From the NCBI GenBank assembly GCA_045863235.1, contig BTUM01000009.1, positions 1-64,000 of the forward strand: 64,000 bases of DNA. The letters run 5' to 3'. A model generated the notes under the pieces. That model was not told the origin of the DNA. It did no database searches and saw only the letters and a program-made list of their open reading frames with translations. This stretch comes from Candidatus Xenobia bacterium. Lineage in GTDB: Bacteria > Vulcanimicrobiota > Xenobia > Xenobiales > QWHO01. The position numbers and the translations under genes are program-made. Numbering within the stretch: position 1 is the first letter of the stretch; the number at the start of each line of letters is the position of its first letter. Below are positions 46,710-60,055 of this stretch, piece by piece.

Positions 46710-49700
46710 TTAGCGTTTGCGAACCCGCACTCCGCCCACCAGCACCGCTTCGCTCTCCTCGCGCAGACGGGGGCCGAGCGACTCCAGCAATCGATCCATG
46801 GCCGCCTCAGGGGCCGAATCGAGCACCACCTCGGGCAGGCGCTCGACCAGTGCCAGCGCCCGCTCCGGCTCCTGATTCTCGAAGAACGAGCTGAGCGCGC
46901 GCAGAGCCGGAGCGGCCAGCGGGGCCGGCACGCGGCTCAAGATCTGTAGCGCTCTCGAGCGCTCGGCGAGCTGCAACTCGGGGGTGCAGGCCAGCTCGAG
47001 CAGGCCGTCGACCGAGCGCTGGCCCAGCTCGTCCAGGCAGTAGGACTCCCCCCCGGCGTCGGTCATCTTGAGGTCCCAGAAGTCCAGTCCCGGATACTCC
47101 GAGCTCGAATCAGTGCGCAGCAGGAAACGCAGGCGCACCGTCTGCCCGCCGTAGGCTGATAGATCCACCTCCTGGCGACCCGAGCCGTTTCCGGTGTAGA
47201 GCGCCTTCTCTTCCCAATCCTTCTTGCCCTCGGGCAGCACCTGCAGATGCACCCGGTCAGGTCCCTTCTCGAACTGGTAGCGAGCCTCGAACGAGAGTTT
47301 TGCTCCCGGCGGAATCCAGGTAGGAGGTGATTCCAGGGCGGCATTCTGGTTCGACCTGTAGTTGCCCGCCGGGCTGTCGCTCCAGCCCCGCAGGGTGCGT
47401 CCCCAGTCGCCGGACGGCTTCCAGCCGGCCTGGCCGAGGCCATCGCGAAGCTTGCCCAGGGCTTCCGTTCCGGCCTTGTCCAGGCTGGCCTCGCGCAGCG
47501 CCTCCAACAGCCGCTCGGGCTCCACCCCCAGAGACCGAAACCGGGCACACTCGCTGCGCAGGTCGACCTCAGCCTGCAGCGCCTCCAGAGGCATTGAACC
47601 GATCTCTTCCCAGGCCTGCAGCGACCTGCTCACACCGCTGATGGCTACCAGGCGCTCCAGCTCCTTGTGCCGCTCGGGCTCATCGGTCAGGGTCGTGATG
47701 GCCAGAGCGGCGCACAGGCCGTGCGCCTTGACAAGCTCGGTCAGAGGCTCGAGAGGACGGTCCATGCGCGATATCAGCTCGTCGCGCAGGGGGGCGAGAT
47801 CCTCGGGCCTGTCGCTGAAGAAGATCTGCCCTGTGGAATCCTCCACCCTCAGGTTGCGCAGCTTGAATCCCTGTCCCTCACTGCTCGAGTCGGAGGTCAT
47901 CCGCCAGCGAAGCTCCACGCGTCCCTCGCCCAGGTCGCTCAAGTCGAGGTCGTCTGTTCCCTGGGGAACCTGACCGGTGTAGTGCTGCAGCGGCTGCCAC
48001 TTGCCCCCTTCGGGACGCACCTCCAGCCGCACGAAGTCGCTGTTCTTCTCCAGGTCGCACTGGTAGTCGAACCTCACTCGCGCCCCCTGCTGGCCGGCCA
48101 GCGAGATCACCGGGCTGGTGAGGCTGTTGTTGGCGTTAGAGCGATAACGCCCAATGCGGTTGTCGGCCCACACGCCTGGCTCGCTGCGCACCCACCCCTC
48201 GGTCTGCCACGGGTGCAGCGACTCGAGCAGACCTTCCGGGAAGCTGGTGCCGCGCAAGGCACGGCTGTCGGCCAGGCAGCGATCGAGCAACTCGGGCTGC
48301 TGCAGGCGGTTGGCGATCTGGGTGGCGAGCTGGAAGGCCTGCACCGAGTCGCTCTGAACCTCGGGGAAGAGGGCGGCGGTGGCCTCCACGCCCACGGCCA
48401 CGGCTGCCTGGCTCAAAGACTCGGCGGGAGCCTGCAGCCGGAAAAGCCGCAGGGCCTGGTCGGGCCTGAGGTCCTGGCTGAGGCGATCGACCCGCTCCAG
48501 CCCCTCCAGGTCGCGCTGGCGGGCCAGCTCGAGGATCTGGTCCAGAGTGGCTCGCTGGCTCCGGGCCTGGTCGCTGAAGACCAGTTCGGGGGGCGCCTCG
48601 GGTTGAAGGGTCGGACGGGCCTCGACCCGGAAATCGGCCAGCTCGAGCCCCTCGCCGTTATTGGAGCTGTCCGTCTTGAGGCGAAAACGCAGCTGCAGCA
48701 TGCCCTGACCGAAGGGAGCCAGGGACAGCTTGTGCTCGGCCCAATCGCTCTGGCCCGTGAAGGCTGCAATGCCCTCCCACTGCTGGCCGTCGCGCGAGGC
48801 TTCGAGCAAGACGTTGTCGGCATTGCGCTCGAGATCGTGGCGAGCGCGGAAGCTAACCGTGGGAGCGCTGTGATGGCGCAAGTCCAGCACCGAAGTGGTG
48901 AGGGATGCGTTCTGACCGTGGCGATAGAGTCCCGGGCTATCGGCCCAGGCGCCATCTCCAATCGAGTGCCAGCCGCCTTCCTTGCTCCAGGTCGGGCAGG
49001 TGCGCTGCACCAGCCGGGCCACGTGCTCCTGGCTCTCGGGGGGGAGCTGGGCCAGCTCGCGATAGACGGCCATGACGGAAGACAGGTCGTCGGGGGTGGG
49101 GGTCAGCCTGCCGGCTGCCTGGAAGCTGGCCACCATCCGGTCTACCTCGCCAGGGAAGGGGGCCAGGGCGGCGGCCGCCTGGTTGCCCAGGCGCTCGGCC
49201 AGGTGGGCCACGCGTTCAACGCTCTCGGGGGGAATTGGACCCAGGCGCAGGGCCTCGGCCACCGAGCCGGTGCCCGCCACCAGCTGTTGCAGGGGCTCGA
49301 TGGGCAAGCCGCCGGCCACCAGTCTGGCCACTTCCGCAGCCAGGGCCGCCCGCTCCTGGGAGCGATCCTGCTGAAACAGCGAGCGGGGGGCAGCCTCGAA
49401 GCGGGGGCGTCCCTCGAGCGAGATATGGCTCAGACTGACCCCTTCCTGGGTCACCGAGCTATCCGAGCTGAGGCGGAAGCGCACATGCACGGGAGCGCCC
49501 TGGTAGGCAACCAGCGAAACCTGGTGCTCGGTCCAGTTGGACTTGTCGGTGATCTGCCTGAGGGCTTCCCAGCTCTTGCCGTCGGCCGAGGCCTCGACCA
49601 CCAGCCAGTCCCGGCCCTTCTCCAGCTGGGTCTGGCAGCGAAAAGAGAGCGTGCACTCGCTGGCGTGGCGAAGGTCGACGACCGGCAGGCTGAGCGAGCT

Positions 49701-50789
49701 CTGCTGGTTGTCCTTGTAAGGTGCGCCGGGGCTGTCGTCCCAGACTCCATCTTTTTCAGCCCAGGTGTGCTGAGCAACGATTCGCGGCACGGCGGCGTCC
49801 AGCCACTTGCGCAGGGCGTCCTGAGCGGCCGGCTCCTGGCGGGCCAGGCGGGCGGCCGCGGCCGGGTGCTCCAACCGCCCCAGCCAGTCGAGGTAGGCCG
49901 GGTGAGTCGCCAGGGGAAGCGCGTCCAGCTCCCTGGCGGCCGCATCGAGCAGCTCGGGCCGGAGCACGACCGGAGCCACCTGCTCGCGCGCCTGGCAAAG
50001 ACGCTTCTCTTTCATGGCCTTGCAGACCGCTTCGGGGTCCTGGCCGACCTGCCAGCTGCCCAGCTCGCGCTCGTGCCAGCTCAGGGGCACCTCGGAGGCG
50101 CGGGCACGGTAGAGCTCCAGGGCGTCGCTGCGGTAGCCTTCCTCCTGCAGCATCCGCAGGCCGCGGGCCAGCTCGGGCTGCTCCAGCGCCTCGGGGCCCA
50201 CCTGACCCAGCAGATAGGCGAGCATGGCGACGTCCTGGCCGCTCTCGAGCGACCTGCCGGCTGAGGTCACGCTGACCCCGGAGGTCAGCCTCAGGTAAGC
50301 CCCCCAGGAGCCCACGGGCTGCCCTTCGTGCTCGAAGACCTGGCCCGAGCGCTCGAGCTGCTCGAGCTGCCGTGCCAGCTCGGGGCTGGGCAGGCGGCTC
50401 ACCTCGCCGGCGTGGAAGGCGGTCAGCACGGCCAGGTCGTCGGGTCCGCGCAGGGGCAGCCAGGCGCCTTCGGGCGCTCGCACCCTGAGATCATCGGGGT
50501 CCTTGTTGAGCAGTGCCTGACCGGCCTGCAGGGGGGTGGAGGGCGTCCAGCCCAGCGAGCCTACCAGGCGCTTGCGCTGGAACTCGAACCCACGGCTCTT
50601 GAGCCCTTCCAGGGCGGCCACCGCTCCGGCCAGTCCACCCAGCGCCCCTTCGCTGGCGCTGGCGCCTGGCAGACCGGGACGCCTGCCGCTCAGCTCGACC
50701 TGGTCGGTCGGGCCGGCAGCCGCTCGCGGCACGATGCCGGACGCGGGCATGAAGGAGGCTCTGAGTGGCTCCACTCGCATGGAGGCCAT
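46710..50789 (-). CDS. Large protein with four InhA/MAM-like beta-sandwich repeats separated by helical spacers; no Sec signal
   Basis: Four copies of W.DSPG..Y..N.N.SL..P..DL...F.....LE...D...LE....G..W......TG......L....G..V.LRFRL..DSS...G at about 49406-49763, 48615-48988, 47835-48209 and 47055-47423; start may be ATG 50780. Confidence 0.8.
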   Translation of the reverse strand: MASMRVEPLRASFMPASGIVPRAAAGPTDQVELSGRRPGLPGASASEGALGGLAGAVAALEGLKSRGFEFQRKRLVGSLGWTPSTPLQAGQALLNKDPDDLRVRAPEGAWLPLRGPDDLAVLTAFHAGEVSRLPSPELARQLEQLERSGQVFEHEGQPVGSWGAYLRLTSGVSVTSAGRSLESGQDVAMLAYLLGQVGPEALEQPELARGLRMLQEEGYRSDALELYRARASEVPLSWHERELGSWQVGQDPEAVCKAMKEKRLCQAREQVAPVVLRPELLDAAARELDALPLATHPAYLDWLGRLEHPAAAARLARQEPAAQDALRKWLDAAVPRIVAQHTWAEKDGVWDDSPGAPYKDNQQSSLSLPVVDLRHASECTLSFRCQTQLEKGRDWLVVEASADGKSWEALRQITDKSNWTEHQVSLVAYQGAPVHVRFRLSSDSSVTQEGVSLSHISLEGRPRFEAAPRSLFQQDRSQERAALAAEVARLVAGGLPIEPLQQLVAGTGSVAEALRLGPIPPESVERVAHLAERLGNQAAAALAPFPGEVDRMVASFQAAGRLTPTPDDLSSVMAVYRELAQLPPESQEHVARLVQRTCPTWSKEGGWHSIGDGAWADSPGLYRHGQNASLTTSVLDLRHHSAPTVSFRARHDLERNADNVLLEASRDGQQWEGIAAFTGQSDWAEHKLSLAPFGQGMLQLRFRLKTDSSNNGEGLELADFRVEARPTLQPEAPPELVFSDQARSQRATLDQILELARQRDLEGLERVDRLSQDLRPDQALRLFRLQAPAESLSQAAVAVGVEATAALFPEVQSDSVQAFQLATQIANRLQQPELLDRCLADSRALRGTSFPEGLLESLHPWQTEGWVRSEPGVWADNRIGRYRSNANNSLTSPVISLAGQQGARVRFDYQCDLEKNSDFVRLEVRPEGGKWQPLQHYTGQVPQGTDDLDLSDLGEGRVELRWRMTSDSSSEGQGFKLRNLRVEDSTGQIFFSDRPEDLAPLRDELISRMDRPLEPLTELVKAHGLCAALAITTLTDEPERHKELERLVAISGVSRSLQAWEEIGSMPLEALQAEVDLRSECARFRSLGVEPERLLEALREASLDKAGTEALGKLRDGLGQAGWKPSGDWGRTLRGWSDSPAGNYRSNQNAALESPPTWIPPGAKLSFEARYQFEKGPDRVHLQVLPEGKKDWEEKALYTGNGSGRQEVDLSAYGGQTVRLRFLLRTDSSSEYPGLDFWDLKMTDAGGESYCLDELGQRSVDGLLELACTPELQLAERSRALQILSRVPAPLAAPALRALSSFFENQEPERALALVERLPEVVLDSAPEAAMDRLLESLGPRLREESEAVLVGGVRVRKR

Positions 50790-52276: not shown

Positions 52277-53301
52277 TCAACTCGATTACACCCCGTGTCG
52301 TCGTTCTGGGCGGCGGCTACGCCGGCGTGGAGCTGGTGGAATCGCTGGAAGACGCCCCGGTGGACGTGGTGCTGGTGGACCAGAAGCCCGAGCACACCAA
52401 GAAGACCAAGCTCTGGAAGATGGCCGTGGGCCGTGAGTCGGACGCCGTCGAGCCGCTCTCCAAGGTGGCCCGCAAGGCGGGCGCTGAGCTGCGCCTGGGC
52501 CAGGTTCAGGCCATTGACACCGAGTCGCGCCAGGTGAAGCTGGAAGGCGGCCCTACCCTGAGCTACGACTACCTGGTGGTGGCTCTGGGCTCGCGTCCCG
52601 CCACCCCGGAAGGGGCCGAGCACGTGCTCACGATCGACCAGCCCGAGGACGCCCAGCGCATTCGCGAGACCGTCCGCGCTCGGGCGCTGGAGGCCATGCA
52701 GACCGGCCAGAACCTGCCCATCGTGGTGGTGGGCGGCGGCGCCACCGGCATCGAGCTAGCCGGGGTGGCCCACGAGGTGGTTCGCCAGGTCAGCCCCCAG
52801 CTACTGGAGCGGCTGGAGCTGACCCTGGTGCACTCGCAGAGCCGCATCCTGAACGGTCAGAGCGACGAGCTCGCGGCCCGAACCACGGCTGCCCTGGCCG
52901 ACCTGGGCGTGCGCCTGCAACTCGGGCAGCGCGTGGCCGCCGTGCGCGAGGGCCAGGTCGAGCTGGCCTCGGGCCAGATCCTGCCCTCGGTCTGCACCCT
53001 CTGGGCCACCGGTACCCGCGCTCCCGAGCTTCTGGCCAGCCTGGGCCCCACCGACCGTGCGGGCCGCCTGGAGGTCAGCAAGCACCTCAACCTGCCCGAG
53101 CACCCCGAGGTCTTCATCATCGGCGACGCCGCCCTGGCGCGCTGCGCCGGCCAGAGCGTGCCGCCCAACAAGCGCGCCGCCAAGCAAGAAGCAGAGCAGA
53201 CCGCCCAGAACCTGCGCAACGCGGTGGCCGGCAAACCACTGGAGCCGTTCTCCTACCGCGACAACAAGGACTGGCACCACATCGGGCCGGTGGAGCTGTG
53301 A
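52273..53301 (+). CDS. FAD/NAD(P)-dependent oxidoreductase (NDH-2/AIFM2-like)
   Basis: VVVLGGGYAG, YDYLVVALGS, VVGGGATGIELAG, LWATG, VFIIGD. Confidence 0.9.
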   Translation: MINSITPRVVVLGGGYAGVELVESLEDAPVDVVLVDQKPEHTKKTKLWKMAVGRESDAVEPLSKVARKAGAELRLGQVQAIDTESRQVKLEGGPTLSYDYLVVALGSRPATPEGAEHVLTIDQPEDAQRIRETVRARALEAMQTGQNLPIVVVGGGATGIELAGVAHEVVRQVSPQLLERLELTLVHSQSRILNGQSDELAARTTAALADLGVRLQLGQRVAAVREGQVELASGQILPSVCTLWATGTRAPELLASLGPTDRAGRLEVSKHLNLPEHPEVFIIGDAALARCAGQSVPPNKRAAKQEAEQTAQNLRNAVAGKPLEPFSYRDNKDWHHIGPVEL

Positions 53302-53716
53302 AACGCAAGAATCGTCGCTCTGACCCGAAGAACTTACATGGGGTCTTCGATGGCGCCCTGACGGGGTTTGTGGGGCGGCTGGTGGCTGAAATGATCACCG
53401 TTGGATCACCGTTTCCGGGATCGCGTGGTTGACCATTCTAGATTATCGAGCCTTGGCTTGAGCGCCAAGAGAACGGGCCCCCTCTAGCAAGCGAGTTGCC
53501 GGCCAGGGAGGCGCGTACGGGCTCTTGGCCAACTGCGCCAGAGAAACTTTGCGAAACCTGCTGCGCTCTGCGCCTCGGGGAGGCACTCGGCCATGAACTC
53601 ACGTGATAGCTCCGGATGGCCAGTGTAGAGCAGGTCGAGAAGCGTACGATCCCCTAACGCTCGGCGGTCTCCCTCGTAGCTCATACCAGCACCGTATTCA
53701 AGAGTGTCTCCTTCGG

Positions 53717-54310
53717 CTACGGTTGGTTCTGAATGTACTTTAATCCGTGCTCAAAGCTATGGATCAGCTTGCAACCAAGCGCCTGTAACTGCGTCTCCAC
53801 GTTTGGAACCCCGAAGTCCTTGCTGTTCCGGTTGATGTGACAGCTCTGTGCAACCTTATTGTTTTGCAGATCTGTCAGGATACTGGCCAGCACAATGGCG
53901 TCGCCCGGGGAGAGGTAACTCTCGTGGATCCTGGCGTCCTGCAGAGTTCCCAATTCCAGCGGTAAGATGCGCGCCGCTTTGAGCAGCCGATCCCTACTTT
54001 GATCAAACTGAGTTTCCGCGTCCTGGATACTCCTGGTTAGCAAGTCGACAGAATGGTCGAGTGCCCGAAGACCCTCCGAGTATGAATCATTCCTGGCGAG
54101 TTCGGACCGCTGGCGCCTCAGATCCAGTTGTAGGTCTTGCCGCTTGATCTTTAGCCGAACCAAGGTGTTGAAGGGCTCGACCAGAGAAAAAGCTGGAATG
54201 GCCAGTTCTATCGATCGACCCGGGAGTGCCAGAATGTCTTGGCAGGCCTGAGACTGTTCCTGCCCGAGCACAAGTTCCAGCACAAAATTCGTCTCGCAGT
54301 AAACTCTCAC
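53717..54310 (-). CDS. PIN-domain protein (DUF4935-like)
   Basis: VYCETNFVLE, FSLVEP, LSPGDAIVLAS, NRNSKDF; GTGA overlap with the upstream gene. Confidence 0.8.
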   Translation of the reverse strand: MRVYCETNFVLELVLGQEQSQACQDILALPGRSIELAIPAFSLVEPFNTLVRLKIKRQDLQLDLRRQRSELARNDSYSEGLRALDHSVDLLTRSIQDAETQFDQSRDRLLKAARILPLELGTLQDARIHESYLSPGDAIVLASILTDLQNNKVAQSCHINRNSKDFGVPNVETQLQALGCKLIHSFEHGLKYIQNQP

Positions 54311-54753
54311 CGAGATTGGAGAACGCTTCCGCCATGAATGGCCGAAGGAAGTCCCGACTCATGCAATTCGCCTTGTTCCGTGGGCGAGTCGACTAAGTCC
54401 TGAAGCCATTGGCCCACGATGAGCTCATAGGCAAGGGGGTGCACTTCCGAGGGCTTAATTTGCGCGCGCTCGAAGTAGGGAGCAAGAATTGGACTAGCAT
54501 TCACCACAAAGTCCGGCTCGGTCGAACGACTCTCTGGCCTCCAGATGAAAAACTGTTCGGGAGTTGCGAGTAAGAAGTAAGAGCCCTTTACGGCCCACCC
54601 AGACTTCAGCAAATTGTCTCGAAAGCGGCTGGCCCAGGCCGAAGAGGCTCCCTTCAAGCTCTTCGCTTCCACAATCAGAGCCTGGTTTCCCAAGGCATCC
54701 AGGAGGAAAAAATCAAACTTATCGTCTCTGTCGGATCGCATCTTACTTTGCAT
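54307..54753 (-). CDS. Hypothetical protein with PD-(D/E)XK-like motif
   Basis: FDFFLLDALGNQALIVEAK; YFLLATPEQFFIW. Confidence 0.7.
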   Translation of the reverse strand: MQSKMRSDRDDKFDFFLLDALGNQALIVEAKSLKGASSAWASRFRDNLLKSGWAVKGSYFLLATPEQFFIWRPESRSTEPDFVVNASPILAPYFERAQIKPSEVHPLAYELIVGQWLQDLVDSPTEQGELHESGLPSAIHGGSVLQSR

Positions 54754-54969
54754 TCTACACCCGGACGCTCGTAGAGGGAAGGATTCGGGTGCTTGGCAGC
54801 AATGCTCGGTTTGGCCACAATGTTCCGTTCAGCGCAGTGCATCCCGGCACGCCGACGCGGACGAACGTCGCTCCCACGCAGAGAACCTACGCGGGAACCG
54901 CAGAATTCGGCTCAGTTCTGGTTCCGGGCACTGAGAGGAGGTCACGTTGATCACCGTTTGATCACCTAA

Positions 54970-55344
54970 CCTACTGATTGGGTAACGTATGATACGACCA
55001 CCAAATTCGAGCCTGACATGTTCGTCGCGCGGGTGGAGGGGGACTCTATGGAGCCACTCATCCCCAATGGCGCCTACTGCCTCTTCCGTTATATTCGAGA
55101 CATGCCTCGGGAAGGCAGGCCCGCTCTCGTCTGGCACGACGGGCTCAGCGATCCTCACACAGGCGGAAAGTATACCCTCAAGTATTTCACGGTTGAACCC
55201 CCAGTTGCGTGGCGCAAGCCTGGTCGGGTCGTGTTGAAGCCTGCAAACAAGAATTACGAGCCGATTATTCTTCCATTGGAGGGAGAAGGAGTATTCCGTG
55301 TAATTGCAGAGTTTCTGGAAGTCCTGAAGGGCGCAGGCACCTAA
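54970..55344 (+). pseudogene. 5'-truncated S24 (LexA-like) peptidase domain
   Basis: WV...PDMFVARVEGDSMEPLIPNGAYCLFR...GGKYTLK...LKPANKNYEPI; the frame begins right after TAA 54967 and has no HTH. Confidence 0.7.
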
Positions 55345-55383
55345 TTAGGCGCACTGGTGACTTAACCATATCAATCCGCGACA

Positions 55384-57672
55384 TCATTCTTGGAACTGCT
55401 CTGCGAGCGCCCAAAAGGCATCAATCCTCACGTCGCCCACGTCCCCCGTCTGGGCCTGAAGGAATCTCTCCTTGTCAACCTGGAACCGCACGAAGTTCTT
55501 GGCTTTCCCGCTGGTTTGTCGATGGACGTCCCGCAATACACCCGAGTCGATGCCAGCCTTAACAACTTCTTCGGCTAGGTCGCCAAAATCTGATTCGAGA
55601 TCTTCGACTGCTACATCAGAGGTTTTATTTGACTGCCGGACGAGCCTTGTAACGCACTTGATGAGCTTTGGCTGTACCTGCCGAACAGTTTCCCGTGCTG
55701 CAACTATGTCCTCAGTAAAATCTGTGGTCGCTCCGCGCGCCTGAATAGCCTCTAGTATCTGTACTGGGTTGAACAGTGTTTCCGTGTTCTGCTCACTTTC
55801 TCCACCTCGCGAATTGTCCAGCACTTCCAGTCGCCTAAATTCACAGTCCAGGAACCGTGATGAAATAACTGTAGATGAATCGACTTTAAAGCCATCGAAG
55901 AGGCACCTGATAAACTCGCATCCAATGAACTGCGTTCCACCAAGGTCTACGTTGACAAACTTGCAGCCGTGAAATGTCACCCTATCATACTTGTTCTTCA
56001 TTAGGCACTCATCAGCGAAGTTCAGGTCATGCAAGGAGATACCGTCCTCGCGCGAGTCATTTAGAAGGCCCGCGCATACTGCAGACGCGTTCGTGGACGC
56101 CGTGTAATCGTGATGGCTTTTGCCGATGGTTGATAAGACCTTAGTTACATTTCTTAGGCTGCCTCCTTCGCGCCGAAAAAACCAAACAGTCCAGTCAGTT
56201 AACTCTGGACTCAACTCGCGTTCGGATAGTAGAATCGAGAGAGAGTCGGTATCTTCGGACATCATTATTACGGCGAGCCGAGCGCCTAAGAAATACGCAA
56301 AAAAACTCTCATGCAGGAATCCAAAGGTAGCTGTAGCCCCCTCCTTTGGGACAAGGGCAGCGTGCGTAGGCACCTTCTCAATAATCTGGGTCTTAACTGC
56401 TGCTTCGAGCTGGAGGTGCATCAATCCGAGTTCTGCGGCTATTCGGAGTTCGTCGGCTGCAAGCCGAAATGCTCCGGATCGCCACATTTCCTCGGCAACT
56501 GCACCTAGCATTGCGATGTGCCCCGCGGTATCAAGTAAGGGCTTTCGCGTCTGGGTCTCTATCCATTTTTCCCATTCCTCTCGTTCGAGCAAAATGCGGA
56601 AAACGTAGTCGCTGCGCTCGAGGTGACTACCGCCAACGTCTATGTTCTTGAATCGTTCCTTCTCAACTACCCAGAGTTTGGCTAGACGTGTGAGGAAGAT
56701 CGGGTGGAAAATCAGTTGCTGGTCATTCTCGAAGGTGTTCAGGAGTTCACGCAGGTCCCGCTCGGCGTCCTCGGACCCCAGCGACTTAAATACCTCGATA
56801 GCCTGGTTGACCTTCCATCCCAAGAGTTGAATGCCGACGGTCGAATACGCGCCACGTTTGGGTTGGAGATGTGTCCTGATACTTGCCGAAACTTGGTAGA
56901 GGTCGAAGAAGCCTTCTCGAGCCGACAAAATCACGGACCCTGCAGTATCCATTTGGTCAACCAGTTCGGTTATTTTGATGAATGCGTCCCGACTGCCCAC
57001 CCGTGCCACCAACTCGTCGAATCCATCGAGCGCCAGGACTATCCAGCCCCATTTCATGCAGGCCACAACCTCCCGTTGCGTCAGAGGAAAGTCGTAGGTG
57101 TTGTTCAATGAGCCTGCTACAGCATCATCAATATTTCCCACATAGCGACCCAACAGGTCGACAGGAATCAAGATTGGAGTTGGATGCTCTTGGGCGCGAT
57201 ACTCATTGGCACACTGAATAGCCAGCCACTCCAGGAGGGCGGTCTTGCCTTGTCCAGCCGGCGCCATTAGTTGGATAAGTTGAGTATTAGCTACTGGAGG
57301 TGCCGCGATAATGCTACGAAGCCTGTTAAGAACACTATCTTCTTCAGTGCCACTTCCTGTTGCATATGCGCGAAAACGGGCATGGCCATCGATAAATTTC
57401 GCCGGGCGCTTCTCCCAGTTTCGCTGAAGAACGCGCGATATCTGTTGCGCCAACCTCGGCAAGCCGAGCACCTCGGACTGGACGTATTGCGTCACAGGAA
57501 CGACTTTCTCACCATCCACCACTCCAAAGCCGATCCCCGCGATCTGTGTCAACTCAAAGAGAGTCTCGCTTCCGTGGCGGAAAAGGCTCACGACGGAGCC
57601 CTCTCGATGGTAGTTTGCCGGGTCGGAGATCAGTTCTTGAAATCTCAGGTCTATATCTTCAATGCGAAGCAC
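55384..57672 (-). CDS. NACHT/STAND-type NTPase with pentapeptide repeats
   Basis: Walker A APAGQGKT, Walker B LALDGFDEL, VILSAR, HPIF, winged-helix FGFLHESFFAYF; pentapeptide FHGCKFVNVDLGGTQFIGCEFIRCLF; SD AGGAGG. Confidence 0.85.
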   Translation of the reverse strand: MLRIEDIDLRFQELISDPANYHREGSVVSLFRHGSETLFELTQIAGIGFGVVDGEKVVPVTQYVQSEVLGLPRLAQQISRVLQRNWEKRPAKFIDGHARFRAYATGSGTEEDSVLNRLRSIIAAPPVANTQLIQLMAPAGQGKTALLEWLAIQCANEYRAQEHPTPILIPVDLLGRYVGNIDDAVAGSLNNTYDFPLTQREVVACMKWGWIVLALDGFDELVARVGSRDAFIKITELVDQMDTAGSVILSAREGFFDLYQVSASIRTHLQPKRGAYSTVGIQLLGWKVNQAIEVFKSLGSEDAERDLRELLNTFENDQQLIFHPIFLTRLAKLWVVEKERFKNIDVGGSHLERSDYVFRILLEREEWEKWIETQTRKPLLDTAGHIAMLGAVAEEMWRSGAFRLAADELRIAAELGLMHLQLEAAVKTQIIEKVPTHAALVPKEGATATFGFLHESFFAYFLGARLAVIMMSEDTDSLSILLSERELSPELTDWTVWFFRREGGSLRNVTKVLSTIGKSHHDYTASTNASAVCAGLLNDSREDGISLHDLNFADECLMKNKYDRVTFHGCKFVNVDLGGTQFIGCEFIRCLFDGFKVDSSTVISSRFLDCEFRRLEVLDNSRGGESEQNTETLFNPVQILEAIQARGATTDFTEDIVAARETVRQVQPKLIKCVTRLVRQSNKTSDVAVEDLESDFGDLAEEVVKAGIDSGVLRDVHRQTSGKAKNFVRFQVDKERFLQAQTGDVGDVRIDAFWALAEQFQE

Positions 57673-58375
57673 ACTGGCCTCCTATCGAGGTTATTAGGAC
57701 CCCACGATTCTCAAGTGAAGTGTCGCAGTAATACGTTTTGGTGTGGGACCGAATAACAGACAAATTTGCGCCGTTGTGGATACTGGCGGCCAGCAATGCG
57801 GGTGAAAAGTCTACGTCATCGGAAACTAGGCAGATACACGAATCGGAAGAGGATGAGGCTAACGAAAGGAGGTCAGTTGCGATGTGGACGTCAACCTGCT
57901 TCTGCTCGTTTCTTTCAAAGTAATCGATATATCGATGTGCGCAGCTTGCTTCTGTGCAAGCGCGACTGTTTCCCATCCATCGCTGAACGTCCTTTAACTG
58001 ACAGCGCGCATTCTGGCAGTCGAGTTTACTAGAGGCACGCGGTTTGGAGCGCCTGATGGAGACGGTATGAGTAATGTGAGGGTCGGCGTGCGAGGCAAGG
58101 ATTAGACGGTCGGCAAACTCAAAGTGAACCCGGACCAGGAGACCGTAAGCTTTCAGCAACGCGGGGCACTGTTGTTGATAATAATTGGCCGCCGCATAGC
58201 GGGCCTCCGTGGCGAACTGGTCTCGAAACCAGCCACCATAAGCGCGGAAAACCACGTTAGCTATTCGGCCGCTTCGCGTCAGGAGGGTTTCGCGGCAGCT
58301 GTGCACCCACGATGTGATTACTTCGGCCGGCGGGACGTCCGAGAAATTGTCGTGGTCGACAAGAATATAGTTCAC
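57659..58375 (-). CDS. NYN-domain (LabA/DUF88 PIN-like) nuclease with Cys-rich insertion
   Basis: ILVDHDN, RAYGGW, EQKQVDVHIATD, LVSDDVDFSPAL; CQNARC...CTEASC insert; 14-nt overlap with the NTPase gene. Confidence 0.85.
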   Translation of the reverse strand: MNYILVDHDNFSDVPPAEVITSWVHSCRETLLTRSGRIANVVFRAYGGWFRDQFATEARYAAANYYQQQCPALLKAYGLLVRVHFEFADRLILASHADPHITHTVSIRRSKPRASSKLDCQNARCQLKDVQRWMGNSRACTEASCAHRYIDYFERNEQKQVDVHIATDLLSLASSSSDSCICLVSDDVDFSPALLAASIHNGANLSVIRSHTKTYYCDTSLENRGVLITSIGGQCASH

Positions 58376-58726
58376 ATCAGGTCCTGCGCCACTCGATGCT
58401 CAAGTCCCTTTGAGTCTGAAGCGACCGCCAACAGAGCCACCTCACACCCGACCAGCATTTGATCACTTTTTGATCACCGGACTCAAAATCACGCCCGATC
58501 ACCACGCCCTCCCAGAAACACCAAAACTCACCAAAACCAGCGCCACCTCTAATCTCCAGCACACCCAACATAATGCCAGATCACCCAAGATCACGCCCCT
58601 GCTTATCTACCCGGGGAACCTACATGGGGCCTCTTCGATGGCGCCGCCGACTGGGTTTGCGGGGCGGGTGGGGGCACCGTTTCCGAGCCGGCATGGCTGC
58701 GCGATCTGCGGAGCGATCTCGAGACC

Positions 58727-59209
58727 TTACTCTTGTCCGGGGTCCAGGATGGTCAGGTCGGGAAAGTACTTCCCATAATATCCTCGATCACGCGTCACAA
58801 GCTGATCACTTTGCACGCTGGCGTGACCCCCGACCAGAAAATCAGTAATCAGGTGCTGCCTCCAAGGAATTGCCCTCTGACAGGACGAGCACGTAATCCT
58901 CTGGCCATGCCCGCATTGAGGGCAGGCTGGATGATCCGGACGTCGGCGCCGATACTCCCGCCAGGCAAGCCCTGCTCGGCTAAGCCCCTCGCGGGAGGTC
59001 GGAACCACCTGAATGCCGGTATCCATCAGGAACGTGTCCAGGGATCCCTGATTCGGGAAATGCGCCGCAAGCTCGGAATACACAACCTCACCCATGATCA
59101 GGGTGCCGTTGCGAAGGCTATCGTCGAGCGCATTCTGAGAAGCGAGTTGAAAGGGAGAGCCTGGCACCAGAACATCCAAAATTACATTGGTATCTAGCGC
59201 GGAGGTCAT
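58727..59209 (-). CDS. vapC: VapC-family PIN toxin with zinc-ribbon insertion
   Basis: LDTNVILD, VYSEL, CPQC..CSSC, ITDFLVGGHA, LVTRDRGYY. Confidence 0.9.
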   Translation of the reverse strand: MTSALDTNVILDVLVPGSPFQLASQNALDDSLRNGTLIMGEVVYSELAAHFPNQGSLDTFLMDTGIQVVPTSREGLSRAGLAWREYRRRRPDHPACPQCGHGQRITCSSCQRAIPWRQHLITDFLVGGHASVQSDQLVTRDRGYYGKYFPDLTILDPGQE

Positions 59210-59442
59210 GGGTCCGGTTCGCCTCGGAGTTCGTCCAGAAGGGAATCCGGATCTTGTCCGGCCAGTGCGCGCAAGTAGCCCAGGTAAGGAGCAAACGGCG
59301 AACTCTCAACTCGCTTGCAGACGCGGATGATATGGTCCTCTTCCAGGAACTCAACCTGATCGCCAGGGTGGAGATCAAGTCGCTCCCGAATCTCCTTTGG
59401 GATCGTCACCTGACCCTTGATTGTCATCCGACTTGCGGGCAT
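59206..59442 (-). CDS. AbrB/MazE/SpoVT-family antitoxin
   Basis: MTIKGQVTIPKEIRERLDLHPGDQVEF; ATGA overlap with the toxin gene. Confidence 0.92.
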   Translation of the reverse strand: MPASRMTIKGQVTIPKEIRERLDLHPGDQVEFLEEDHIIRVCKRVESSPFAPYLGYLRALAGQDPDSLLDELRGEPDP

Positions 59443-59453
59443 CTGGCCTCCAA

Positions 59454-59481
59454 GTATTACTAGTTGACACTATCGTAATAC
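59454..59481. promoter_or_regulatory. Inverted-repeat operator upstream of the TA pair
   Basis: GTATTAC-tagt...acta-tc-GTAATAC immediately upstream of the antitoxin start. Confidence 0.55.
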
Positions 59482-59638
59482 CTGGTTTCGAAGTTTGTCA
59501 ACGCCGGGCCAAGGGCTTCGAGCGTGCAAGCGCTTCGGCGTCCCCATCATTCCTGCGCGGAGAACCAACATGGACTGCCCCATTGGCTTTGGCACCGGGG
59601 GCAGGGCGCTCTGGGAACGTCCTCGCTACCGGACTCGG

Positions 59639-60055
59639 TCAGCGCCGCGAGGGCAGAGGGACGTAAATCTCCCGGCACCTGAGGTGCCACAGCTCGACAC
59701 GGCAGAGGTCCACCCGCCGCTGAACCCGCTCCAGGGCCTCCTCCCAGCTCTGGCGCCAGAGGGAGATCCCCAGCGCAGCCGCGGAGCAGCCTGAGATGAC
59801 CCAGAGGGTGACCGGCCACAGGCCAGCCACGCCGGCGGCCAGGGCCAGGAGGCAGGCCATCCTCAGCTGGTCGAGCCAGCGCGAGGCGCGCTGCAGGCGG
59901 GCCTGGAGGCGGGCTTTGCGGCGCTCGAGCACGGCCTCGCTGGCCAGCACCTCGCGGGTGCGCTCGGCCAGGAAACGCAGGTCCGAAGTGGACTCGACCA
60001 GGCCTCCGTTCACGATCCTCAACTCCTCCATCACCCACTCCTCTCTGGTCATCAC
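59639..60055 (-). CDS. Hypothetical membrane protein
   Basis: Coiled coil, two hydrophobic segments, coiled coil; start at 60055 or 60031. Confidence 0.6.
   Translation of the reverse strand: MMTREEWVMEELRIVNGGLVESTSDLRFLAERTREVLASEAVLERRKARLQARLQRASRWLDQLRMACLLALAAGVAGLWPVTLWVISGCSAAALGISLWRQSWEEALERVQRRVDLCRVELWHLRCREIYVPLPSRR

Follow-up and report, generated by a model that had tools for sequence, protein, structure and literature searches.

NACHT proteins are switches that work through nucleotide exchange and oligomerisation; their sensor lies at the C-terminal end and an effector or adaptor at the N-terminal end, and bacterial NACHTs are proven antiphage proteins whose protection depends on the Walker A motif. 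Those bacterial relatives of the NLRs for which we found a description have the effector as part of the protein itself, whereas in animals NLRs use adaptor domains to recruit effectors that are separate proteins. The available portion of 10.1101/2022.07.19.500537 defines D[GAS]hDE as the NACHT Walker B signature, and it counts pentapeptides among the C-terminal repeat sensor classes of bNACHT proteins and the winged helix-turn-helix (wHTH) among their adaptors. Here, we describe a two-gene cassette at positions 55384 to 58375, minus strand, of a 64,000-nucleotide stretch (the window) from a Candidatus Xenobia bacterium (contig BTUM01000009.1, positions 1 to 64,000). Its first gene encodes a predicted endoribonuclease of the NYN (PIN-like) type and its second a NACHT/STAND NTPase, and according to our analysis the two are a real conserved unit.

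The NYN-NACHT gene pair and its products

The NYN gene (57659..58375), recognised from its open reading frame (ORF), Pfam and an AlphaFold model, encodes 238 amino acids (aa), and the NTPase gene (55384..57672), recognised from its ORF, relatives, AlphaFold model and fold matches, encodes 762 aa; all cassette features given below lie on the minus strand. The two ORFs overlap by 14 nt, and at their junction (57659..57683) an AGGAGG Shine-Dalgarno sequence (57678-57683) stands 5 nt before the GTG start of the NTPase at 57672, an arrangement which makes translational coupling probable. Overlap and ribosome-binding site had been pointed out in a first-pass annotation of the window, and they were recovered in the ORFs together with every NYN and NTPase motif quoted there.

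Scans anchored on the NTPase listed at least 33 loci. After leaving out L007, which is not of the same family, and two loci starting at a contig edge, the NYN gene was found directly upstream, on the same strand, in all 30 loci with upstream DNA, two of which are cut by a contig end and two of which (L010 and L022) are near-identical. The reverse test, carried out with a broad NYN profile (E ≤ 1e-12), covered 400-401 genomes of Acidobacteriota, 400 of Pseudomonadota, 300 of Cyanobacteriota and 300 of Gemmatimonadota, which gave 7, 2, 0 and 4 new matches, respectively. Twelve of these 13 are full length, all distant from the window protein, and the thirteenth is a fragment; an NTPase homologue of 747-770 aa lies directly downstream in 12/12 (profile E 1e-69 to 1e-102). 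The co-occurrence survey proposed in the first-pass annotation thus bore out the pairing in both directions. The gap between the genes ranges from -14 to +27 nt in 42/42 pairs, with starts picked by heuristic, and no other gene family occurs in more than three of the 33 listed loci plus the window. Tree distances of the two proteins are correlated, with a Mantel r of 0.91 for 36 pairs and, inside single clades, of 0.79 (n = 23) and 0.82 (n = 12), values reached by 0 of 2000 shuffles, and this congruence points to joint descent and is not proof of interaction. Because of the co-occurrence in 30/30 and 12/12 loci, the congruent trees and the lack of a third conserved gene, the NYN and NTPase genes form a conserved two-gene unit, in which coupling is nearly obligate.

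The two proteins share no homology, and no fused NYN-NACHT protein was found among 112 NTPase relatives (419-1334 aa searched) or the best 150 NYN matches (≤ 454 aa). The source genome holds a single copy of each gene. In one RNA-library run, seven contigs map to a 9-kb stretch; five of them belong to the pair, and one crosses its junction (57305-58002), which is a weak hint given a single low-depth run that was found via this gene and possibly contains DNA. Two other RNA runs from that study contained almost none of the words looked for. A scan for promoters and terminators gave nothing above chance.

The second protein is a member of the STAND NTPases' NACHT clade. Among 7999 scored candidates of 419-1334 aa, 112 relatives were retrieved at E ≤ 1.4e-83, with 28-47% identity and nearly all of 730-766 aa, none longer. 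The AlphaFold model (pLDDT 93.7, pTM 0.91) has its closest folds in the NACHT modules of animal NLRs, with NLRC4 at a Foldseek E of 2e-12 and with Z 13-14 and a root mean square deviation (rmsd) of 4-5 over ~370-470 residues for NLRC4, NLRP3, NOD2 and NLRP9. A helix-plus-sheet domain (residues 4-60) is followed by the NACHT region with its helical and winged-helix domains (~60-540), pentapeptides (543-620) and a wHTH (662-757), and the layout of the NACHT clade, from AAA+ core to helical domain to winged-helix domain, is present. The Pfam NACHT family (PF05729) matches the window protein at E 7e-4 (19.9 bits vs a cut-off of 26.7); across clades, 13 of 23 members match at E ≤ 0.001, and several relatives pass the cut-off. 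Walker A, APAGQGKT (residue 137; 57241..57264), has A139, G140, G142 and K143 invariant in 105/105 relatives and is also invariant in 23/23 members across clades, and Walker B, LALDGFDE (residue 213; 57013..57036), which carries the D[GAS]hDE signature, has D216, D219 and E220 invariant in 105/105; one distant clade has DGFEE in place of DGFDE. The FLHESFFAYF motif (residue 452; 56290..56319), whose F-x-H occupies 452-454, ends the NACHT winged-helix domain, with H454 kept in 102/105.

The first-pass annotation called this NTPase effector-less. No fused enzyme domain was indeed found at its N-terminus with Pfam or the Atlas, but residues 4-60 (57493..57663), which matched no family, form a conserved, acidic domain of one helix and a five-stranded sheet. 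The Atlas gave no usable match for it, with feature scores ≤ 0.80 and a structural template modelling (TM) score ≤ 0.45 outside one cluster, which is not evidence of a new fold; that single cluster, a 761-aa NACHT/pentapeptide protein, is probably the NTPase's own family. Since the domain occupies the position of the effector in NLRs, we regard it, by analogy, as a candidate docking site for the NYN protein. The pentapeptide beta-helix (residues 543-620; 55813..56046) comprises ~15 repeats, matches Pentapeptide_4 at E 9e-7, below the cut-off, and aligns with MfpA at Z 10.4 over 90 residues. Mean identity falls from 62% for the nucleotide-binding domain to 36% (N-terminal domain), 35% (last winged helix), 29% (pentapeptides) and 23% (HD2), so that the last two are the most variable folded parts, and the beta-helix is a candidate sensor. 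The possible winged-helix C-terminus mentioned in the first-pass annotation (residues 662-757; 55402..55689) has the expected helix-helix-helix-hairpin topology in the model, with TM 0.46-0.57 to wHTH proteins of the MarR/TFE type, below the Atlas bar for naming a family. Its TM to the C-terminus of a 1015-aa Actinomycetota NACHT cluster is 0.66, also below that bar; this cluster is perhaps a related chassis to which an N-terminal effector is fused.

The partner is a member of the NYN fold with intact acidic residues. Pfam NYN matches it at E 1.1e-8 (36.2 bits vs a cut-off of 24.2), and its model (pLDDT 93.7) aligns with the NYN domain of mouse MARF1 at Z 11.1 (rmsd 3.3, 139 residues) and with VPA0982 at Z 10.9, the next unrelated structure reaching only 7.5. 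The MARF1 alignment and the Pfam score together place it in the PIN-like alpha/beta fold, while Foldseek alone did not place it (best E 0.02) and no solved chain matched in sequence. Its motifs VDHDN, QKQVD and SDDVDF begin at residues 6, 158 and 185, and, in close relatives, D7 is kept in 92/95 (3 gaps), D162 in 95/95, D187 in 94/95 and D189 in 95/95; D7, D162, D168, D187 and D189 are invariant in 40/40 sequences of a broad cross-clade alignment. These residues were mapped onto MARF1 by motif and not by superposition. The lid region carries conserved R-x-YGGW and T-x-x-x-R motifs, and the protein has a basic four-cysteine (Cys4) insertion, C120-x4-C125-x14-C140-x4-C145 (57941..58018), already noticed in the first pass, whose cysteines are kept in 95/95 close relatives and which is a probable zinc module.

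The Cys4 insertion is wholly missing in three distant NYN members (L006:6838-7449, L117:9483-10052 and L119:9444-10094), and we dropped the idea that pairing requires it, as all three are still paired with an NTPase. The NTPase of L117 is nearer to an insert-bearing clade, which suggests more than one loss. A NYN profile search of 1.84 billion representatives gave 105 matches at 1e-30 and 601 clusters at E ≤ 1e-10, among which is a large second clade carrying the same motifs, and neither the NYN protein nor 40/40 relatives fell into an NCBIfam family (June 2026).

Spread, decay and proposed control of the predicted RNase

The cassette is sporadic across at least six phyla, in 0-3% of genomes per phylum, with hosts that include Gemmatimonadetes, Acidobacteriota, Desulfobacula, Lysobacter, Nitrospiraceae, a cyanobacterium and Fibrobacteraceae. 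A full-length NYN match is present in 0/60 relatives of the source genome, which gave four weak partial matches. The lower GC reported in the first-pass annotation was confirmed, at 0.52-0.53 for the pair vs 0.65-0.72 for the backbone, and GC at third codon positions is 0.57-0.59 vs 0.85-0.89 in two backbone genes. In all 27 loci with at least ~4 kb of flank (27/27), the GC of the cassette is lower than that of the flanks, by a median of 10 points. No family member was found in IMG/VR contigs, in GenBank phages (with a single distant NYN as query) or in 72,556 plasmid records, where the lone match is an unrelated partial NACHT from a 1850-aa protein of NACHT-pentapeptide-WD40 type, as its domains read from the sequence. 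Integron cassettes were considered and rejected as a general feature, an attC candidate standing beside the cassette in one of 34 regions and none in the window. IntI-like integrases occur near three cassettes (L003, L022 and L026) and an attC-like hairpin lies just before the NYN gene in L017 (878-939); some copies may travel in integrons.

Neighbours picked by hand include a type I restriction-modification (RM) system with PDC-M23 (L056), type IIG RM (L055 and L033), GmrSD (L066), AbiEii (L014), a GajB-like helicase (L028), TIR (L018 and L057) and HNH (L010) genes. In L054, the cassette lies between drmMI and drmA of a DISARM locus, with HEC-01- and PDC-M11-like genes. For a controlled comparison, ORFs were called by one procedure in the 5-kb flanks of the 12 NYN-anchored loci and in 10-kb control regions taken from 11 of these genomes, 12 of the 16 regions retrieved being used. 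PADLOC families matched 18/83 flank ORFs vs 7/107 control ORFs at 1e-10 (p 0.004, ORFs not being independent), and 15/83 vs 2/107 once generic matches (ABC-transporter ATPases, DEAD helicase, reverse transcriptase, ankyrin, homing endonuclease) were removed. The link of the cassette to defence is suggestive and of moderate strength. Directly behind the NTPase, one locus each carries a gene for a Thg1-like guanylyltransferase (L002:10390-11541) and for an SDH-type ClpP-like protease (L017:3976-5088).

In the same 400-401 Acidobacteriota genomes, a broad NTPase profile found 13 loci, eight with a Cys4 NYN gene and two with a shorter, insert-less NYN gene that resembles the cyanobacterial L006 and had escaped the NYN profile search. 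One further NTPase is cut by insertion sequences, with no NYN gene found in its genome, and two of the 12 intact NTPases stand behind the remnant of a deleted NYN gene (L115, first ~48 codons; L116, ~80 middle codons). No intact NYN gene without an intact NTPase was seen among the Acidobacteriota loci surveyed. Two NYN-first losses out of two would arise with a chance of ~0.06 from gene lengths alone, and this decay pattern (n = 2) leans towards a NYN protein that is harmful without its partner. The NTPase being kept while the NYN gene was lost in both decayed loci hints at the restraint of a toxic RNase by the resting NLR.

The explanation we prefer, at a probability of about 0.45, is a horizontally moved, self-contained defence module of two genes, where a NACHT protein of NLR type controls an NYN RNase encoded by its own gene, by restraint followed by release. 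Translational coupling would ensure that the two proteins are synthesised together, and they would form a complex via the small N-terminal domain of the NACHT protein, which at rest, probably ADP-bound and closed, would silence the RNase. The variable half made up of HD2, pentapeptides and winged helix would sense an invader product or a disturbed host factor, whereupon nucleotide exchange, and probably oligomerisation, would free or activate the NYN protein; once released, this would cut cellular and phage RNA and halt the infected cell, as in abortive infection. The first-pass annotation had proposed a split sensor and effector with activation in trans. Of this, the conserved NACHT/NYN unit stands, but the direction of control may be the opposite one, restraint being the better fit to the decayed loci.

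Several observations weigh against restraint and release in defence. In the STAND proteins characterised so far (Avs, bNACHT, animal NLRs), the effector is activated and not restrained, the decay asymmetry comes from two loci at a chance of ~0.06, and congruent trees are expected for any linked genes. The defence-island enrichment which the first-pass annotation proposed to look for, significant per ORF, is not significant per locus, where any PADLOC match occurs in 8/12 vs 6/12 (p 0.68), or in 5/12 vs 1/12 (p 0.15) after removal of the generic matches; several cassettes lie between housekeeping genes (L001, L050-L053 and L067), and about half sit alone there. In the available text of 10.1101/2024.01.29.577857, HEC-09, the sole stand-alone NYN candidate tested, gave no protection against the phages used there. 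A broader proposal, which we consider doubtful, would turn a widespread family of prokaryotic NLRs, made up of several clades, into nucleotide-gated antitoxins, with the resting NACHT protein holding the NYN protein via a new N-terminal adaptor fold and releasing it once the pentapeptide/winged-helix sensor detects an invader. If this were true, NLR signalling would be joined to toxin-antitoxin logic, NYN would become a proven immune effector in bacteria, and the pair would be the smallest two-protein model of NLR signalling to an unfused effector.

Activation by recruitment accounts equally well for the pairing, the context and the folds, although we judge it rather unlikely. Here, the NYN protein would be inert alone, possibly shut by its own long lid insertion, until the NACHT protein, once triggered, oligomerises and brings NYN copies together via the N-terminal domain, in the way that Avs and bNACHT cluster their fused effectors; the invariant Walker motifs and the position of the N-terminal domain agree with this, and "adaptor" N-termini recruiting other effectors have been proposed for bacterial NACHTs. 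However, recruitment predicts orphans of either gene, with the three-times-longer NTPase mostly broken first, whereas both clean cases lost the NYN gene, and PIN/NYN RNases whose acidic site is complete often need no partner to be active. NYN-first decay, two-gene coupling and low GC would also suit a toxin-antitoxin module of selfish or stress type, or a system directed at plasmids and other mobile DNA instead of phage, with NYN as the toxin, NACHT as an ATP-gated antitoxin and the C-terminal wHTH binding DNA or regulating the operon. Neighbours such as vapBC, ccdAB and insertion sequences, and the many loci outside defence islands, speak for such a module, which we nonetheless deem improbable: a 750-aa NLR-like protein with a variable repeat domain would be a costly antitoxin, the plasmid records and IMG/VR contigs, where addiction modules are common, yielded no family member, and the cassette is repeatedly embedded in RM and DISARM loci.

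The suggestion of the first-pass annotation that the pentapeptides act as a DNA-mimic decoy, imitating DNA like MfpA/Qnr and trapping a phage DNA-binding protein as the trigger, did not survive and now appears very remote. Sequence and fold do resemble MfpA/Qnr, and most members are slightly negative; the helix, however, spans ~78 residues vs 186-217 in MfpA/Qnr chains, its net charge is only -4, the median of -0.05 per residue is less acidic than that of the N-terminal domain (-0.10), NCBIfam scores are 14-20 bits vs cut-offs of 240-500, and the repeats are flanked by domains on both sides and belong to a general, listed class of NACHT sensor. We give as little credit to a regulatory or RNA-processing role outside conflict, for example as a LabA/DUF88-like regulator under nucleotide control. 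One relative is labelled "LabA/DUF88 family" by its source and NYN domains also serve RNA processing, but the patchy spread (0/60 relatives, 0-3% of genomes per phylum), the low GC in 27/27 loci, the variable insertion sites and the decay argue against it.

The islet around the cassette

In the window, the neighbours of the cassette are a PIN gene, a 148-aa gene, an S24 peptidase fragment and an abrB-vapC pair. The first-pass annotation described the pair as part of a repeat-bounded islet, and the repeats are real. The left copy (53301..53440, box 53323-53386) resembles the sequence that immediately follows a tyrosine integrase gene on contig C13, and the right-hand copies (58459..58675), just upstream of the NYN gene, comprise a TGATCAC-N4-TGATCAC pair at 58460 and a 67-nt box at 58609-58675; the two boxes are 84% identical over 67 nt, and a further TGATCAC-N4-TGATCAC pair lies downstream of the cassette at 54948-54965. 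The 11-nt-period TGATCAC pair has nine exact copies vs 0.1 expected. The family is scattered over about ten contigs of the source genome (C5, C13, C14, C18, C21, C53, C60, C78, C110 and that of the window); it marks an insertion or cargo hotspot and is not part of the system. One copy follows the tyrosine integrase gene on C13, which is why we take the repeats for attachment-region relics, probably; others flank AAA-ATPase or toxin-like cargo genes. The minus strand of the 67-nt box reads like the 3' end of a tRNA; the repeat matches no Rfam family, and no tRNA in the source genome ends like it.

In one genome of the same genus, the stretch matching 52310-59647 is replaced by ~480 bp, and another has the repeat and vapBC but no NYN gene. 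The abrB-vapC pair of the window (58727-59442, minus strand) consists of an abrB/mazE-type antitoxin and a VapC PIN toxin with a zinc-ribbon insert, and a genome of the same genus (L100) has a copy of 78-82% identity next to this repeat. The 148-aa gene (54307-54753, minus strand), which overlaps the PIN gene (53717-54310, minus strand) by 4 nt, has no Pfam, PADLOC, NCBIfam or PHROG match; it contains a motif reminiscent of PD-(D/E)XK nucleases, and with the PIN gene it is a possible further toxin-antitoxin-like pair. A lone S24 peptidase fragment lies at 55018-55344 (plus strand). It is maybe the relic of a larger defence gene, as a type I restriction subunit close to another cassette (L020:12892-16491) terminates in a similar S24 domain. 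Farther away, 46710-50789 (minus strand) encodes a protein of 1359 aa in which a beta-rich domain (W.DSP...Y..N.N.SL) recurs four or five times; the protein is conserved in another genome of the genus (L099).

Relation to described systems

As supposed in the first pass, the pair matches no named system in the resources searched. In PADLOC 2.0 (2023 copy), neither the window NTPase (E ≤ 0.1) nor five distant members (1e-5) matched any family, and the NYN protein gave only weak partial matches; NCBIfam (June 2026) gives only pentapeptide cross-matches for the NTPase, the best being Hailong HalA with 29.6 bits vs a cut-off of 250. A search of full-text literature, with most subscription papers outside its scope, found no description of a NYN-NACHT pair, including in the accessible parts of PMC8195603, PMC10853773, 10.1101/270033 and 10.64898/2026.10.19.760177, and NYN has 0 occurrences in the main text, as available, of 10.1101/2022.07.19.500537. 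The NTPase may already be listed as a NACHT-pentapeptide protein in Table S1 of that work or its journal version. On these sequence comparisons, the cassette would be an unnamed NLR-like defence variant of bacteria.

Its likeness to bNACHT (Kibby et al., 10.1101/2022.07.19.500537, as far as available) extends to the D[GAS]hDE motif, the pentapeptide sensor class, the variable C-terminal half and the sporadic spread. What sets the cassette apart is the absence of a fused enzyme (112 relatives, all ≤ 766 aa) and the nearly constant presence of a separate NYN gene. With AVAST (Avs1-5), the cassette shares a STAND switch, a repeat sensor and a nuclease-type output, and Avs1 reportedly has effector genes in trans; however, no Avs profile of PADLOC matches, the NTPase fold scores Z 9.2-9.8 to Avs4/Avs5, below the 13-14 to animal NLR NACHTs, pentapeptides and a wHTH stand in place of a TPR sensor, and the effector is NYN rather than Cap4, Mrr, SIR2 or a protease. 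PARIS (AriA/AriB), Septu and AbiL also combine an ATPase sensor with a separate nuclease, and in PARIS the ATPase is said to hold the nuclease until a phage protein frees it, which is the logic of our working model. The same combination is given for HEC-03 (ATPase and PIN) in the available text of 10.1101/2024.01.29.577857. All four differ from the cassette in that their ATPases are of ABC type and not STAND/NACHT, their nucleases are others, and no profile matches.

HEC-09 (Payne et al., 10.1101/2024.01.29.577857) resembles the NYN protein in its MARF1-like NYN domain, three conserved aspartates and defence context, according to the portion of that source at hand, where NACHT is mentioned 0 times. 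It is described as a single protein with an N-terminal HTH-like part, whereas the NYN model has no HTH, and its profile matches the NYN protein at E 1.8e-4, 19.2 bits, over 65 residues only. MARF1 NYN and VPA0982 (LabA-DUF88) share the core fold, the Asp in strand 1, the K-x-x-D helix and the S-D-D-x-D loop, but the NYN protein has an insertion of ~90 residues with YGGW and Cys4. Qnr/MfpA are long, acidic stand-alone rods, unlike the ~15 repeats of net charge -4 inside a multidomain protein. Since the cassette fits on 3 kb and offers clear point mutants, three questions become directly testable, i.e., whether a NACHT protein can restrain and not only activate an effector, what a pentapeptide sensor targets, and whether NYN RNases act in antiphage defence. 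By analogy, the cassette would work like a bacterial NLR defence system, without being a member of Avs, HEC-09 or Qnr/MfpA, and it offers a compact natural case of the unfused NLR design, with hundreds of divergent members (601 NYN clusters).

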